Of a DNA stretch of 64,000 nucleotides, positions 2,957-6,673 are shown piece after piece. The stretch lies in the sequence record PQ471516.1. One strand, written 5' to 3'. A model generated the notes under the pieces. It was not told where the DNA came from, did not search any database, and was given only the letters and a program-made list of their open reading frames with translations. Source of the DNA: Escherichia phage Turkey5. Position numbers and translations under genes: made by a program. The first letter of the stretch is position 1. Each line of letters begins with the position of its first letter.

Positions 2957-2985
2957 TTGACGGGCTTTTCTTTTATGTGTATACT
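2957..2985 (+). promoter_or_regulatory. sigma70-type promoter, TTGACG-17-TATACT
   Basis: TTGACG at 2957-2962, 17-nt spacer, TATACT at 2980-2985, followed by GGGAGG and ATG 3011. Confidence 0.55.
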
Positions 2986-3010
2986 GTATGAAAACTGGGA
3001 GGTATTTTGT

Positions 3011-3553
3011 ATGAAATTCTTTAAGAAGAAAGACGATTTAGATTGGTCTTCATATGTCCAAGAACGTAAGATTAATAAATGTATTTTTAAATTAATTACT
3101 AAAAGTATCTTACTCAAAGAAAGTATCACTACGGATCAAGACCGTAGAGATTTAATCAATTTAAAGTACAAAGTAAGTTCATTTTTCTTTTACAATCTAA
3201 TGAAAGAAATTGCAACGAGTACAGATCCTGAACGTTGGGATGTTGATGTTGACCGATATTACGGTGGGGACATTAGTTTCACTATTCGTGATAGAAAGAA
3301 GAATGTATCCATCAACGCTGATTATGATACGGCTGATAATGTTCAGTTTGATGATCCCAATTTACGAATAAAAGATGAAGAAATCAGAGTGAGTATTCGC
3401 AAAGATTTTGTTAAAACACATTTAGAAAGTCCAGAGAAATTCATTATGATTTACTTTGTTATGGAGTACGTTAGTGTTACAGAAAATCTAAAGAATTTAA
3501 GAAGACTACAAAATGAGCACGAGCTAAAACTATCAGTCAGAGATTGGTACTAG
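3011..3553 (+). CDS. hypothetical protein, cassette gene A
   Basis: ATG 3011 preceded by GGGAGG; shares N-terminal MxFFKK and a DRRxLIxxKYK...DPxxRW motif with gene B. Confidence 0.55.
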   Translation: MKFFKKKDDLDWSSYVQERKINKCIFKLITKSILLKESITTDQDRRDLINLKYKVSSFFFYNLMKEIATSTDPERWDVDVDRYYGGDISFTIRDRKKNVSINADYDTADNVQFDDPNLRIKDEEIRVSIRKDFVKTHLESPEKFIMIYFVMEYVSVTENLKNLRRLQNEHELKLSVRDWY

Positions 3554-3561
3554 GAGAGAAC

Positions 3562-4080
3562 ATGTTTTTCAAAAAAGACAAAGTGGAAAAAGAAGAGAAG
3601 AATTTAAACTTTCTTAATGACGTTATCCAAGTCCTTATGAAAAGTTATCAACTCAAAGATAAAGTACTGAATGATGACGACCGCCGATTGGTTATCGATA
3701 TTAAGTACAAATTGAGTAAACATCCTTTACTAACTCTAATCACAGAGATTGTTAAAGATCCACATGACAGCCGATGGAGATGGATTGAACAGTGTGCTTC
3801 CGTTTATTCCACTACTCGTTATGAATTACTTGACACAGTAACTGACGTTCAAGTGGGTGTGCGATGCTTTGATATAAAAAACGCAACACGACACAAAAAC
3901 ATCCGAAGTTCTGTTGATTTTAATAGTGATGTATTAGTAGAAGAAGAATCCATCTTTTTATTCTGTTTCTTGCACGGTTTGAATCAAATGTACACAACGA
4001 TTTCAGTACTGAACCAGCAGCAGAAAAATCTACAAAAACGTAATGAAATTAAGGATTTATATCAATGTTCAAAATCTTAA
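3562..4080 (+). CDS. hypothetical protein, cassette gene B (paralogue of A)
   Basis: ATG 3562 with AGGAGA upstream; motif DDDRRLVIDIKYKLS...DPHDSRW parallels gene A. Confidence 0.55.
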   Translation: MFFKKDKVEKEEKNLNFLNDVIQVLMKSYQLKDKVLNDDDRRLVIDIKYKLSKHPLLTLITEIVKDPHDSRWRWIEQCASVYSTTRYELLDTVTDVQVGVRCFDIKNATRHKNIRSSVDFNSDVLVEEESIFLFCFLHGLNQMYTTISVLNQQQKNLQKRNEIKDLYQCSKS

Positions 4081-4565
4081 AGAAGCAACAAGCAAATACA
4101 AATCCTCTTACTGAGTTCATTGGCTCACTTATTCTAAGCAAAAGTCCATTACTTGTTCAACACTGCAAGGATGATTATGAACGTGAAATTATCATTAACA
4201 GAAAATACATTCATTCAAAATGCGACTCTATGATTTACAGCTTCGTAAAGTACTGCTTAGTGAATCGTAATTACGTCAGTGTTCATTGTGAAGATGAACC
4301 GTGTTATGATGGATGGGCGAAAGAATGGTTTATTTTTGAAAATGGTCGTGGGTTCAAATTCTTTTCATTACCTGATGGTTCAGTTTGTATCTTCATCGCT
4401 AACCGTAATGAGTGGGTAGAGTATTCCACATCAAAATATGATTATGATGTTCTCGCTGATTTATATCGTTGTATTAAGAATTTTCAAGTAATTGAAGCCA
4501 ATTTAGAAAAACAACGTAGAAATCTCAAATGCGTCGAACAATACAATGAAATGTACAGGTGCTAA
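4065..4565 (+). CDS. hypothetical Cys-containing protein, cassette gene C
   Basis: ATG 4065 with AAGGA upstream; start overlaps end of B. Confidence 0.5.
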   Translation: MFKILKKQQANTNPLTEFIGSLILSKSPLLVQHCKDDYEREIIINRKYIHSKCDSMIYSFVKYCLVNRNYVSVHCEDEPCYDGWAKEWFIFENGRGFKFFSLPDGSVCIFIANRNEWVEYSTSKYDYDVLADLYRCIKNFQVIEANLEKQRRNLKCVEQYNEMYRC

Positions 4566-4567
4566 TT

Positions 4568-4966
4568 ATGGATATTAACGATATCTATAGTACTATACGT
4601 TCTATGGGTGATAGTCGAAAAGTATATGGTGATAGTAATCGCCAAAAGATATATGGCATTAACTCATACGATGTAATATCGTTTGAGTATGATGAAGGTG
4701 GACATAGTTCAATAAACATTGTTTGCCCACGTGACTCTGAAAATAACTTCATGTACGTTGAAATTAACAACGAAGGAATCAATTTCATTAAGATTCACAA
4801 AGGTGGAAAGACACATGAAGTACTGGATTTATCAGAAGAAGATCGTTTCTTTCAGGAAGATACAGTGATTGATTTAGGCTTTAGTCTAAGTGATTATCAC
4901 ATTCTCCAAGAAGATTTCCTAAAATATTACAATGGCTTCCTAAAGGAGTTAACAATACACTTATGA
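4568..4966 (+). CDS. hypothetical protein, cassette gene D
   Basis: ATG 4568 with AGGTG upstream; tightly packed behind C. Confidence 0.5.
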   Translation: MDINDIYSTIRSMGDSRKVYGDSNRQKIYGINSYDVISFEYDEGGHSSINIVCPRDSENNFMYVEINNEGINFIKIHKGGKTHEVLDLSEEDRFFQEDTVIDLGFSLSDYHILQEDFLKYYNGFLKELTIHL

Positions 4967-5400
4967 ACCTAAATGTATCTAAAGAGTTTTTTGATGATGT
5001 CAAAGAATCTTTCTTACAATTAAACGAGAATAGTCGTTTAGATCCTGAAATCAAAGAGGTTGTTCTTCGTTGGCAGAAGAGTCCTTTATTAGATAAAATT
5101 GTTCCTAGATGGAGTTGTCAGGGTCACAGTGATACACATAGTGATTCTGATTATTACATTATTTTCTGTACACAGGACGATGGTGCTGATATTCTATATG
5201 ATATTTTTGATGAGTTTTGTAAGAGTGCCCGTTGGAACTACCGTGTTATTAAGTTGATTCACCAGAATCACTTAGTTGCGGAACCGCACATTGAAATTGG
5301 TCGATACACGGAAGGTCACCAGGAGACTATGAACCACATGAAAGCTTTATGGCTCGCCAAATTACAGGAGATTGAGGATAATCATGAGCAATACAAATAA
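4963..5400 (+). CDS. hypothetical protein, cassette gene E
   Basis: ATGA overlap with D; ORF track. Confidence 0.5.
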   Translation: MNLNVSKEFFDDVKESFLQLNENSRLDPEIKEVVLRWQKSPLLDKIVPRWSCQGHSDTHSDSDYYIIFCTQDDGADILYDIFDEFCKSARWNYRVIKLIHQNHLVAEPHIEIGRYTEGHQETMNHMKALWLAKLQEIEDNHEQYK

Positions 5401-6625
5401 ATTTCTTGAACAAACAATTGTCAAGCACTTAGCTGGCTCACAGGCATACGGAACCAGTACACCACAAAGTGATACCGATTATCGTGGTATCTTTTTGGCA
5501 AACAAAGAGTTCATCATGACTCCTTTTTATCGAGTCAAGGAAGTATCTGATGTAAATGAAGAAGATACGAAATTCTATGAACTAAATCAGTACTTACAAC
5601 TGTATACTGAAGCTAACCCGAACATTCTTGAATCACTATGGGTTGACCCTGAACACATCGTAGAAAGTACTGAGATTTATGATTATCTCCGTAGCTTCAA
5701 CCGTGATCTTCTTAGTTCTAAGATTGCATTCTCTTACACTGGTTATGCATACAATCAGGTAAAACGCATGTCAAATCACCACGGTTGGATTGGTAAAGAA
5801 CAAGTAGCAGAACGCCGCTTACGTGAAATCTTCACCGAGCACCCAACTAATGAAGTTGTTGATTGGATGTACGCGTATTTCCCTGATTATGTGGTAGAGC
5901 GTGTTGTAGAAGAAGATAAGGTACTAGACCGTAAAGATATAGTTGATTTCGACAAATACATGCGTGATACTTCCTTACAACTTATCAGTACTGTTCCTTT
6001 AGCACAACATCATTTTGTTCGTTTAGTTCATAACTATCTACCACAAAAAGTACTAGATCGTGACTTTAGTCTAGCTAACTTCAATCATGGGTACGAGTTA
6101 ATTCACTACGGTGATAATATCTTTGCAGTTATTCCTAACGTTAATACTAAAACTATTAGTGTAAACAATGATCTAGTATGGGATAGTTCCAAAGAACGCA
6201 CACCAGAAGAACTAAAGATTACTCCTGCACTTATTGTTAAATTCAATCGTAAAGAGTACGAAGAAAACAATGAAGGTCGCAAGAACTATCACAAGTGGAA
6301 AGAGAACCGTAATGCGAAGCGTGCAATTTTAGAATCAAAACACGGATATGACAGTAAACATGCTATGCATACGATTCGCCTGTTGAATACAGCAGAAGAA
6401 GCATTACTTACTGGTGAAGTTCTTGTAAAACGCCCTGATGCTGATATGCTTATGGATATTCGCAACGGTAAGTGGACTTATGAAGAAGTCATGGAGTACT
6501 TCAACGATAAGGTTGACTATATTCGTAATGTGGTTTACAAGAAGTCTGTACTGCCGAAGAAGCCAAATATTGAATTAGCATCTAAAGTACTAATCGATAT
6601 TCGAGAAATGCAGTGGTATAAGTAA
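5384..6625 (+). CDS. Pol-beta-superfamily nucleotidyltransferase-fold protein (about 414 aa)
   Basis: N-terminal motif LAGSQAYGTSTPQSDTDYRGIF matches hG[GS]x(9-13)[DE]h[DE]h, with a further acidic residue about 40 aa later; ATG 5384 with GAGGAT upstream. Confidence 0.55.
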   Translation: MSNTNKFLEQTIVKHLAGSQAYGTSTPQSDTDYRGIFLANKEFIMTPFYRVKEVSDVNEEDTKFYELNQYLQLYTEANPNILESLWVDPEHIVESTEIYDYLRSFNRDLLSSKIAFSYTGYAYNQVKRMSNHHGWIGKEQVAERRLREIFTEHPTNEVVDWMYAYFPDYVVERVVEEDKVLDRKDIVDFDKYMRDTSLQLISTVPLAQHHFVRLVHNYLPQKVLDRDFSLANFNHGYELIHYGDNIFAVIPNVNTKTISVNNDLVWDSSKERTPEELKITPALIVKFNRKEYEENNEGRKNYHKWKENRNAKRAILESKHGYDSKHAMHTIRLLNTAEEALLTGEVLVKRPDADMLMDIRNGKWTYEEVMEYFNDKVDYIRNVVYKKSVLPKKPNIELASKVLIDIREMQWYK

Positions 6626-6640
6626 TAGTTTTATTGGTCA

Positions 6641-6673
6641 CAATGCACCTAAAAATGGCACTGTGACCAATAA
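6641..6673 (+). terminator. 12-bp perfect stem-loop without a clear U tract
   Basis: TTATTGGTCACA at 6641-6652 pairs with TGTGACCAATAA at 6662-6673; immediately 3' of the nucleotidyltransferase gene. Confidence 0.4.

Follow-up and report, generated by a model that had tools for sequence, protein, structure and literature searches.

Characterised RlaP-family nucleotidyltransferases add 1-2 NMP to RNA 3'-OH ends and prefer mimics of broken tRNA, and in vitro they left DNA and proteins unlabelled (PMC12776372). NrdC.11 of phage T4 was placed in the same family, PF10127 (PMC12776372), and in jumbo phages RlaP proteins are predicted to act alongside RNA ligases (PMC7824862). In the T4 response to the PrrC anticodon nuclease, the phage polynucleotide kinase and RNA ligase 1 (Pnk-Rnl1) heal and seal the host-cleaved tRNA, and the logic proposed here is the same.

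The window analysed here, the whole 64,000-nucleotide stretch of Escherichia phage Turkey5 (PQ471516.1), comes from an Asteriusvirus jumbo coliphage that is 97% identical to vB_EcoM_JNE01 (JNE01). Region 2946-6674 of the window forms a non-structural operon that is conserved across the RaK2/121Q jumbo-phage group and is not an acquired island. We favour reading it as a host-polymerase-driven, non-structural operon for RNA/tRNA end repair, at a probability of roughly 0.55, with the repair of cut RNA as its probable role. The original prediction listed a promoter, six packed genes, a nucleotidyltransferase, a hairpin and virion genes from 6715, and all of these were found in the sequence (Table 1).

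Table 1. Coordinates of the operon (O1-O6) and its flanking features in the window
Feature	Position	Strand	Remarks
Intrinsic terminator of upstream 908-aa fibre-like gene	2946..2977	+	Stem 2946-2967, loop TATT, then T-run
Sigma70-type promoter TTGACG-17-TATACT	2957..2985	+	-35 hexamer inside terminator loop and 3' arm
O1, 180 aa	3011..3553	+	First of three paralogues; clade-restricted family (phrog_18641 / phrog_7868)
O2, 172 aa	3562..4080	+	Second paralogue
O3, 166 aa	4065..4565	+	Third paralogue (phrog_7868 branch)
O4, 132 aa	4568..4966	+	Conserved small protein (phrog_22376)
O5, 145 aa	4963..5400	+	Putative TYW3/Taw3-like fold; overlaps of 4 nt with O4 and 17 nt with O6
O6, 413 aa	5384..6625	+	Predicted RlaP-family (PF10127) Pol-beta nucleotidyltransferase; T4 NrdC.11 homologue
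Hairpin, 17-bp stem with one mismatch, 11-nt loop	6630..6674	+	Boundary with inserted fibre module
AATAAATA, candidate late-promoter word	6669..6676	+	Overlaps hairpin 3' arm, 39 nt before 42-aa virion gene
Tail-fibre module: 42-aa virion protein, ~173-aa fibre protein, 929-aa tail protein	6715..10133	+	PHROG tail families
Restart junction after fibre module	10130..10183	+	Promoter TTGACA-16-TATAAT overlapping terminator hairpin (10155-10183), then T-run

Transcription unit and its boundaries

The terminator of the upstream fibre-like gene was picked up by a terminator scan (fold -19.7 kcal/mol, z = -3.4). Its stem carries compensatory changes in A4 and Hallingskeid, and the G17 record annotates a terminator at the matching site. 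This element, which contains the -35 hexamer, had been overlooked in the original prediction. The sigma70 promoter claimed at 2957-2985 is present and matches the consensus at 10 of 12 positions, a match that taken alone is not above chance (37 promoter-like sites against 50.5 expected in a 12-kb scan). It is conservation, and not match score, that supports the promoter: TTGAC is invariant in seven aligned relatives from three genera, with a -10 hexamer 16-17 nt downstream, and 12 of 13 RaK2-like loci have this pattern ahead of their first O1-family gene. The cassette promoter is of the standard type throughout the window, where the + strand has 12 copies of TTGACn-16..18-TAnAnT and the - strand has one (2.5 per strand expected under a Markov model). 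PA5oct, a related phage, relies on the host polymerase and on TTGAC/TATAATA promoters, and its temporal classes are interspersed along the genome (PMC7318152). Early timing of the operon would be read solely from its promoter type, and a sigma70-like promoter does not prove early expression because the spanin-containing unit after 10130 also has a promoter of this type.

The six genes are predicted to form a self-contained operon, transcribed as a unit from a sigma70-type promoter of their own, and conservation in relatives backs the separate unit originally proposed. Their coordinates bear out the tight packing with start/stop overlaps: O2-O3, O4-O5 and O5-O6 overlap by 16, 4 and 17 nt, and gaps of 8 and 2 nt separate O1-O2 and O3-O4. 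The genes are translationally coupled. All six are annotated in JNE01 and all are under purifying selection relative to it (pN/pS 0-0.25), which we count in support of their being real genes. By mass spectrometry, none of the cassette homologues gp316c-gp321c was detected in the phAPEC6 virion proteome, and the flanking gp314c, gp315c and gp323c were detected (PMC7247149); on this basis, the operon is non-structural.

The downstream hairpin pairs 6630-6646 with 6658-6674 (-20.2 kcal/mol, z = -5.1 against shuffles), and no U-run follows the stem. A perfect 12-bp stem-loop had been described here; it exists, with arms at 6631-6642 and 6662-6673, and its reported start at 6641 was about 10 nt off. 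In 121Q, G17 and A4 the stem sequence varies yet still pairs, the loop CTAAAAAT is conserved, and AATAAATA is kept. The window has five + strand copies of AATAAATA, and each precedes the start of a structural or late gene, the tail sheath gene among them, by 38-59 nt. In this lineage the operon ends at the hairpin, which abuts this late-promoter-like word driving the inserted fibre module. That structural genes resume at 6715 agrees with the detection of phAPEC6 homologues of the 42-aa ORF (6715-6843) and the 929-aa protein in virions by mass spectrometry (PMC7247149). The restart promoter beyond the module matches the consensus at 12 of 12 positions with an extended TG, and its junction is conserved in 121Q, G17 and A4. 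This junction is missing in vB_Ec-M-J, and the module itself is missing both there and in the metagenomic relative L040. The hairpin is found only where the module is present and is missing wherever the module is missing. The variable insert is the fibre module and not the cassette, which reverses the proposed layout of a cassette inserted between late genes: the module comes and goes, and the hairpin goes with it.

Conservation of the block among relatives

All RaK2-like phages examined carry the same block at the same site, made up of the O1-O3 family in 2-4 copies, O4 in most cases, O5 in some, and then the nucleotidyltransferase. Synteny of the block holds across Asteriusvirus, Alcyoneusvirus, Erwinia phage Hallingskeid, Xanthomonas phage XaC1 and 11 IMG/VR jumbo-phage contigs. 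Five- or six-gene versions occupy the site in 121Q, G17, A4, vB_Ec-M-J, phAPEC6, Muenster/RaK2 and Hallingskeid. O1-family copies lie upstream of the nucleotidyltransferase at all 11 jumbo IMG/VR loci, and in XaC1 four O4 paralogues precede it. The G+C content of the block (33-38%) is the same as that of its surroundings. O5 is the only gene of the block that is patchy within the genus, being dispensable in most Asteriusvirus, and it occupies the same place in Alcyoneusvirus and Hallingskeid; since it is shared with Alcyoneusvirus, differential loss is likelier than gain.

Lambdoid-type morons resemble the operon in having their own promoter, flanking hairpins and a same-strand site beside virion genes, but the operon is conserved in all relatives, has ordinary composition and comprises six genes, and the insert is the neighbouring fibre module. 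The original prediction read the block as a moron or accessory island; such a promoter-genes-terminator unit would be horizontally acquired, dispensable and variable among relatives and would confer a defence or anti-defence phenotype. Its own promoter, the hairpins at both bounds, the failure to detect its products in virions, the presence of O5 in some genus members only and the fast divergence of O1-O3 would all suit such an origin. Conservation in relatives, which that prediction had itself named as grounds for refutation, is nevertheless what was found: the block stands at one site in every RaK2-like phage examined, without compositional anomaly and under the standard promoter of the genome; the lineage-specific parts are the hairpin and fibre module and not the cassette; and the shared position of O5 points to loss and not gain. 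Acquisition as a moron is accordingly most improbable. It is also improbable, if somewhat less so, that O1-O4 serve the upstream fibre-like proteins as chaperones or attachment factors, co-varying with them and absent from the mature virion. In Asteriusvirus, Hallingskeid, L038 and L040 the block does lie downstream of three fibre-like genes, O1-O3 show the strong divergence seen in receptor-binding proteins, and chaperones would not show in virion mass spectrometry; T4 RNA ligase gp63, moreover, also catalyses tail-fibre attachment, which is echoed in the product names of RnlA matches. However, a conserved terminator and a promoter of its own set the block off from the fibre gene. XaC1 has a homologous 911-aa structural gene, and there the O4 paralogues and nucleotidyltransferase are encoded upstream, at a distance from it. 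Muenster has the same block, yet its upstream fibres are unrelated and of depolymerase type. The stable association is with the nucleotidyltransferase and not with any given fibre.

The nucleotidyltransferase and its neighbours

O6 is assigned by its sequence to the RlaP-family Pol-beta nucleotidyltransferases, with its catalytic residues intact. It scores 58.8 bits against Pfam RlaP (cut-off 23, E 9e-16), in agreement with the nucleotidyltransferase-fold protein originally placed at the end of the cassette, and matches phrog_388 at E 8e-76. G18-S19, D30-x-D32 and D61 are invariant as far as T4 NrdC.11, identity is 56-76% across RaK2-like phages, and pN/pS against JNE01 is 0.02. With the bacterial RNA-repair enzymes PfRlaP and PaRlaP (PMC12776372), O6 shares the N-terminal Pol-beta domain, above the Pfam cut-off, and the G-S plus three-Asp catalytic set, and RNA ligase and kinase partners are encoded in genomes of this phage group. 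Unlike them, the 413-aa O6 fits the profile only in its N-terminal half (positions 25-144 of 249) and, compared with the Mydo and Vibrio homologues, carries a clade-specific insertion of ~60 aa; its substrate choice may therefore differ. Its gene does not adjoin an RNA ligase, and bacterial RtcB-RlaP-RtcA operons lack the four to five small phage-only proteins found beside O6. T4 NrdC.11 is homologous (tblastn E 2e-6 over the N-terminal 154 residues) and its catalytic residues align, but at 336 aa it is shorter, its identity is only ~26%, its role in T4 is likewise putative, and its gene lies between mobD and nrdC.10 without relatives of O1-O5.

O1-O3 are fast-diverging, clade-restricted paralogues. 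The O1 family comprises only 17 clusters at 50% identity among 1.84 billion proteins, and O1 has no match in Pfam or PDB. Identity to the 121Q counterparts is 34% for O1, 36% for O2 (121Q_503) and 35% for O3 (121Q_504; 29% to Muenster gp236), and pN/pS is 0.19 (against JNE01), 0.25 and 0.06, respectively. Such rapid divergence and copy-number change might fit proteins engaging variable host factors. O4 adjoins the nucleotidyltransferase gene, or O5 where O5 is present, and may be a dedicated partner of the nucleotidyltransferase.

O5 has an invariant D27 and the motif P-R-W-S51-C52-x-G/S-H55. Compared with the TYW3/Taw3 tRNA-yW N4-methyltransferases (PDB 1TLJ, 2DRV, 2QG3; PMC5311493), it is ~45 residues shorter, has an invariant His in place of the motif Arg that is essential in yeast TYW3, and offers no clear counterpart of the invariant SAM-binding His. 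Searches for TYW3 similarity with Foldseek, HMMER and Pfam found nothing significant, and hhalign gave P 0.065, equal to the negative control. The wyosine pathway is missing from bacteria and their phages (PMC4417183), so any O5 substrate must differ from that of TYW3.

Proposed RNA repair and its alternatives

Under the end-repair reading, the operon would add a nucleotide-restoring step that the two-enzyme pathway of T4 does not need, and a functional tRNA could then be resealed by the phage's polynucleotide kinase and RNA ligase 1, whose genes lie elsewhere. In that case the operon would serve counter-defence, under a promoter read by the host polymerase. O5, if TYW3/Taw3-like, might act on the same anticodon stem-loop substrate, by binding it or by modifying it chemically; tRNA position 37 is the target of the TYW3 fold.

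That O6 and O5 instead mature or modify phage tRNAs or transcripts routinely, by 3' tailing and base modification, with no role against host nucleases, is unlikely. RaK2/121Q-group phages do encode 6-7 tRNAs together with a tRNA adenosine deaminase and a CCA-adding enzyme, the TYW3 fold belongs to enzymes that modify tRNA, and at locus L039 the gene for an O5 homologue adjoins one for a class-Ib aminoacyl-tRNA synthetase, with no nucleotidyltransferase there. Against this, no tRNA genes were found within the 64-kb window, the distribution of the RlaP family follows RNA ligases in jumbo phages, and characterised RlaP prefers damaged tRNA ends with low nucleotide specificity, which suggests emergency repair and not precise maturation. 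The Pol-beta fold supports many other activities, and O6 might make or destroy a nucleotide signal or modify a non-RNA target in the manner of CD-NTase, MNT or aminoglycoside nucleotidyltransferases, the operon being anti-defence or toxin-antitoxin-like; O4 does have a weak PADLOC match to the Shedu SduA model (E 0.0015). This is very improbable, as O6 has no PADLOC match and exceeds the Pfam cut-off for RlaP and for no other nucleotidyltransferase family, RlaP enzymes spared DNA and proteins in vitro, and no nuclease fold is seen in the O4 model.

End repair is in keeping with the ligase and kinase content of these phages. As in T4, RnlA and PseT homologues occur in the group: RaK2 carries rnlA and pseT, and RnlA is found in JNE01 and all listed Asteriusvirus. 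Unlike the T4 arrangement, the operon is far from the RNA ligase and kinase genes (RnlA lies ~37 kb away in JNE01), and because these are non-local the classic RlaP-ligase neighbourhood is not reproduced. Relatives have other RNA-related genes near the nucleotidyltransferase gene: at locus L038 a gene with an S1 RNA-binding domain overlaps the end of the nucleotidyltransferase gene, and in Mydo a CCA-adding enzyme is encoded 2 kb from the RlaP gene.

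Conservation of the O1-O6 operon

Megablast of positions 2900-6720 returned one near-identical record, vB_EcoM_JNE01 (Asteriusvirus, 355 kb; 97.4% identity, 100% query coverage), together with some 35 more jumbo coliphages and Salmonella phages that align over the first ~100 bases only, i.e. the end of the fibre gene and the intergenic junction. The window belongs to the 121Q/PBECO4 group, within the wider RaK2-like jumbo phages. The six packed small genes (O1-O6) are open reading frames as originally predicted, and a Shine-Dalgarno-like sequence, read directly from the sequence, stands ahead of every one of them. 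Neighbouring genes overlap at three junctions, by 16, 4 and 17 nt. Relative to JNE01, pN/pS is 0.19 for O1, 0.25 for O2, 0.06 for O3, 0 for O4, 0.20 for O5 and 0.02 for O6, and all six genes are under purifying selection in this comparison. The coordinates are summarized in the table.

Coordinates of the operon and of the elements flanking the fibre module
Feature	Position	Strand	Remarks
Operon promoter	2957-2985	+	TTGACG-17-TATACT; 10/12 match
O1	3011-3553	+	ORF; same annotation in JNE01
O2	3562-4080	+	ORF; same annotation in JNE01
O3	4065-4565	+	ORF; same annotation in JNE01
O4	4568-4966	+	ORF; same annotation in JNE01
O5	4963-5400	+	ORF; same annotation in JNE01
O6	5384-6625	+	ORF; same annotation in JNE01
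Hairpin	6630-6646 / 6658-6674	+	17 bp, one mismatch, 11-nt loop, no U-run
Restart promoter	10130-10157	+	12/12 match; overlaps terminator; absent in vB_Ec-M-J
Terminator at far end of fibre module	10155-10183	+	Conserved; absent in vB_Ec-M-J

The original prediction read this locus as a self-contained moron or accessory island and proposed a synteny comparison to see whether the cassette is variable or absent in related phages. The self-contained unit stands, with a conserved promoter of its own and flanking hairpins (the 3' hairpin lacks a U-run). The moron does not: the block lies at the same place in every RaK2-like locus examined, and its G+C content (0.33-0.38) is like that of the flanks (0.33-0.39). 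A five-gene block without O5 is found in 121Q, G17, phAPEC6, A4 and vB_Ec-M-J; Muenster/RaK2 (Alcyoneusvirus) has two O1-family genes followed by O4, O5 and the nucleotidyltransferase; Erwinia phage Hallingskeid has O4, O5 and the nucleotidyltransferase; and Xanthomonas phage XaC1 carries four O4 paralogues and the nucleotidyltransferase. An IMG/VR scan with a single protein gave one distant locus only. Rerun with an alignment, the profile searches (24 loci) showed that each of the 11 jumbo-phage loci has two to four O1-family copies upstream of its nucleotidyltransferase, and found none of the small genes with the shorter, more distant nucleotidyltransferases (Vequintavirinae-like) among the 24. 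Variation within the block across RaK2-like loci is limited to the presence of O5 and the copy number of the O1 family. Identity to 121Q is 75% for O6, 62% for O4 and 34-36% for O1-O3; the neighbouring genes share 51-87%, except the ACP-like gene (37%).

Virion genes do follow the cassette, as predicted. The downstream genes match tail-fibre and tail PHROGs, and mass spectrometry of phAPEC6 virions found gp314c (the homologue of the 929-aa protein), gp315c (the 42-aa protein, 4.66 kDa, 69% sequence coverage) and gp323c. The cassette homologues gp316c-gp321c were undetected in phAPEC6 virions by the same approach. The O1-O6 block is non-structural, and the 42-aa ORF at 6715-6843 is a real gene. 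Judging from 121Q genes 507/508, the next fibre gene probably starts, in another frame, within the 3' end of this ORF. No tRNA genes or Rfam families were found in the 64-kb window.

Promoters, hairpins and the fibre module

As a bare-pattern match, the site upstream of O1 means nothing, given 37 promoter-like sites observed in a 12-kb scan vs 50.5 expected. Its -35 hexamer sits inside an intrinsic terminator (stem 2946-2967, with a T-run) unnoticed in the original prediction. In a junction alignment of seven phages from three genera, TTGAC is invariant and is followed 16-17 nt later by a -10 hexamer (TATACT, TATAAT or TAAAAT). A4 and Hallingskeid preserve the pairing of the terminator hairpin through compensatory changes; the terminator of Muenster is elsewhere, yet TTGACA-17-TAAAAT is kept. 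The pattern TTGAC[A/G]-17-TAnnnT lies upstream of the first O1-family gene in 12 of 13 RaK2-like loci. The + strand of the window has 12 occurrences of TTGACn-16..18-TAnAnT and the - strand has one; a Markov model expects 2.5 per strand and reached a maximum of 7 in 200 simulations. The related phage PA5oct requires the host RNA polymerase, has TTGAC/TATAATA promoters at RNA-seq-mapped starts, and has its temporal classes scattered along the genome (PMC7318152); Asteriusvirus encodes a sigma factor and lacks an RNA polymerase of its own (PMC11895373). Owing to the conservation across relatives, the strand-specific enrichment in the window and the PA5oct promoters, the predicted sigma70 promoter is well supported as a real one at the level of sequence. 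It is of the ordinary type for this genome and no special feature of the cassette. From the promoter type, the operon may be expressed early; the ACP-spanin unit is preceded by the same type.

Examples of the TTGACn-16..18-TAnAnT pattern in the window are at 10130, 15593, 19999, 20443, 23171, 38307, 38382, 38474 and 61204, with three tandem copies within 170 nt (38307-38500). A 12/12 site inside the 908-aa fibre-like gene (TTGACA-17-TATAAT, 2770-2798) is probably a chance match, since it is not conserved in 121Q, G17, A4, vB_Ec-M-J or Hallingskeid.

The hairpin after O6 (-20.2 kcal/mol, z = -5.1) has the perfect 12-bp stem that was predicted at 6641-6673; the start was placed about 10 nt late, as the perfect core begins at 6631 (6631-6642 / 6662-6673). 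It is found only in genomes with the fibre module and it covaries, with a conserved loop and 3' flank but different stems in 121Q, G17 and A4. Its 3' arm is overlapped by AATAAATA, which has five + strand copies in the window (6669, 27140, 33922, 34447 and 62767) and a single - strand copy. Each of the five + copies precedes the start codon of a structural or late gene by 38-59 nt, and the word is a late-promoter candidate in this group of phages. The five genes include those for the tail sheath, the 42-aa virion protein and a virion structural protein. The late-promoter word of T4, TATAAATA, has no occurrence in the 64-kb window vs 6.9 expected. Since sigma70-type units and late modules preceded by AATAAATA interleave on one strand, a layout of promoter, genes and hairpin between virion genes is the normal architecture in this jumbo-phage group and no sign of a moron.

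The piece that is present or absent is the fibre module at 6715-10133 (42-aa, ~173-aa and 929-aa proteins), because the nucleotidyltransferase gene joins the next gene directly where the module is missing. In vB_Ec-M-J and the metagenomic contig L040, an ACP-like gene comes directly after the nucleotidyltransferase gene, and in all non-Asteriusvirus relatives the next small gene overlaps or abuts the nucleotidyltransferase stop codon. A conserved sigma70-driven operon, with an insulated late fibre module placed into or beside it, describes the locus best. The junctions without the module lie at 9340-9370 in vB_Ec-M-J and at 6673-6691 in L040; in the window the module is bracketed by the hairpin, the terminator and the restart promoter. 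The ACP-annotated gene at 10192-10596 has 37% identity to its 121Q counterpart and no Pfam match at E 0.01, and its annotation as an acyl carrier protein looks weak. Consecutive fibre-like proteins have a common C-terminal tail of ~37 residues (..RF.TYRPSTT.[KR]GS..P.STG.P..TG..W), at 36-197 and 2830-2940 in the window and at 36-146, 639-749 and 3414-3509 in L040, which may be an attachment or processing module.

The RlaP-family nucleotidyltransferase

The RlaP family takes its name from gene neighbourhood with RNA ligase, and in its members a helical domain at the C terminus makes up the cleft that binds RNA. O6, predicted as a nucleotidyltransferase from the outset, matches Pfam RlaP (PF10127) through its N-terminal domain with 58.8 bits against a gathering cut-off of 23 (E 9e-16), over profile positions 25-144 of 249 only, and matches phrog_388 over its full length. 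Residues G18-S19, D30-T-D32 and D61 do not vary in an alignment that extends to T4 NrdC.11, in agreement with the Pol-beta signature of G-S, D-x-D and a further Asp; three strictly conserved Asp belong to the RlaP signature (PMC12776372). By these sequence features, O6 is an RlaP-family enzyme with an intact catalytic signature. A PDB sequence search with O6 gave no match, and relatives of O6 are carried by 576 phage records. Neither the operon nor the rest of the 64-kb window encodes a ligase; RnlA is encoded ~37 kb from the cassette in JNE01, in the genome and not adjacent. The genomes carry a T4-type RNA ligase, with RnlA homologues at 60-65% identity in JNE01 and all listed Asteriusvirus, and RaK2, the only one with a confirmed kinase, encodes both rnlA and pseT.

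The enzyme family of O6 is already known and has recently been characterised. RlaP enzymes of Pseudomonas add one or two NMP onto RNA 3'-OH ends, favour mimics of cleaved tRNA over other RNAs, are inactive on DNA and protein, and allow over-trimmed tRNA to regain aminoacylation after ligation; T4 NrdC.11 has been assigned to the same family (PMC12776372). A comparative study predicted that RlaP works together with RNA ligases in jumbo phages (PMC7824862).

The nucleotidyltransferase neighbours in Mydo, Vibrio phage 2.275.O and T4 showed no relation to O1-O5. In Proteus phage Mydo (Vequintavirinae), a shorter RlaP homologue stands 2 kb downstream of a CCA-adding tRNA nucleotidyltransferase gene in one gene string (677-5056). 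In L038, a 263-kb metagenomic relative, a gene for an RNA-binding protein with two S1 domains (6682-7176; S1 E 5e-23) overlaps the end of the RlaP gene, and a DUF4326 gene (4323-4625) is just upstream of O4. In L040 a frameshift at codon 22/23 interrupts the RlaP gene (5437-6673), which is a pseudogene unless the assembly is in error.

Small partner proteins and a possible role in tRNA repair

Pfam, NCBIfam and PADLOC gave nothing above noise for O1-O5. O1-O3 form one family confined to this phage group: an exhaustive profile search found 17 clusters among 1.84 billion proteins, all of the same family, and a word-indexed search with O2 found a near-identical protein only. No relative of O1-O3 was found in Pfam or by PDB profile search, and comparison with O4 and O5 showed no relationship. 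O4 is conserved and always beside the nucleotidyltransferase or O5; its predicted model is weak and matches no known fold, and a PDB profile search gave no match. A PADLOC hit of O4 to Shedu SduA (E 0.0015) was rejected because neither a nuclease fold in the model nor conservation of the D...E-x-K pattern backs it.

O5 has only 11 homologues among 5.8 billion clusters, and its AF2 model is of high confidence, with a pLDDT of 85.9 and a pTM of 0.82. It is treated here as a predicted TYW3-like fold. The TYW3 fold is alpha/beta, with an N-terminal extension, a RAGNYA core and an SHS2 insert; its invariant N-terminal Asp contacts the SAM sulfonium, and its invariant His at the end of a RAGNYA strand contacts the SAM carboxylate. 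TYW3 is defined by this fold of its own, the motif (S/T)xSSCxGR, the N-terminal Asp and the His (PMC5311493, PMC2034487). O5 has an invariant D27 (L-D-P-E-I vs L-D-P-D-I in SsTaw3), which hhalign, run against four real Taw3 sequences taken from PDB search output, puts in one column with the Taw3 N-terminal Asp. The spacing from Asp to motif is 25 residues in O5 vs 23 in SsTaw3. The motif itself reads P-R-W-S-C-Q-G-H vs (S/T)xSSCxGR: S51-C52-x-G/S-H55 retains S-C-x-G, with Gly changed to Ser in some members and Cys invariant, whereas other residues stand in place of the first S/T and of the essential Arg, an invariant His in the latter case. The strand P-H-I-E-I-G of O5 is paired with Taw3 P-I-L-H-V, with the His of O5 two positions earlier and replaced by Asn in 3 of 11 members. 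The register is sensible, but the P value of 0.065 is at the level of the negative control. O5 is about 45 residues shorter than TYW3/Taw3; HMMER found nothing, none of the 11 members has a Pfam match, a PDB profile search gave no match, and Foldseek-PDB with the model gave no significant one. O5 is probably, not demonstrably, a divergent TYW3/Taw3 relative (about 50%).

A conserved, separately promoted, non-structural operon ends in an intact RlaP-family enzyme. In the mechanism proposed here, O6 would add back nucleotides at damaged RNA or tRNA 3' ends ahead of resealing by the phage ligase, and such repair would be a counter to base-excising anticodon nucleases of the host. O5, perhaps with O4, would work on the same substrate, and the divergence and copy-number change of O1-O3 would suit contact with variable host factors, which is a guess. 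That O5 is an active TYW3/Taw3 offshoot working with the RlaP enzyme, and perhaps O4, on the tRNA anticodon loop is unlikely; if true, the phage would reseal nuclease-damaged tRNA, rebuild the lost nucleotide and re-modify it, with a module that is not known from any system. The TYW3/Taw3 class has to our knowledge so far been tied to wyosine synthesis in archaea and eukaryotes. If the TYW3-like assignment holds, the class would reach phages and repair would be linked to base modification.

As far as we know, RlaP has been characterised only recently and only in bacterial RtcB operons. Here a phage RlaP shares a conserved operon with small, putatively dedicated partners, and the ligase is encoded by the same genomes. 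The operon context (a putative TYW3-like partner, the conserved O4 and hypervariable paralogues) is absent from the papers found. The locus is a concrete test case for whether giant phages rebuild tRNAs damaged by nucleotide-removing "smart" anticodon nucleases.

In five of seven lineages O5 adjoins the nucleotidyltransferase. It does not in locus L019, where O5 is 5 kb downstream of the nucleotidyltransferase, nor in locus L039, where a 39%-identical homologue has no nucleotidyltransferase within 5 kb. The homologue in L039 (5001-5450) is followed after 1 kb by a class-Ib aminoacyl-tRNA synthetase gene (6474-7703) and lies near SIR2, NUDIX and PhoH/PIN genes.
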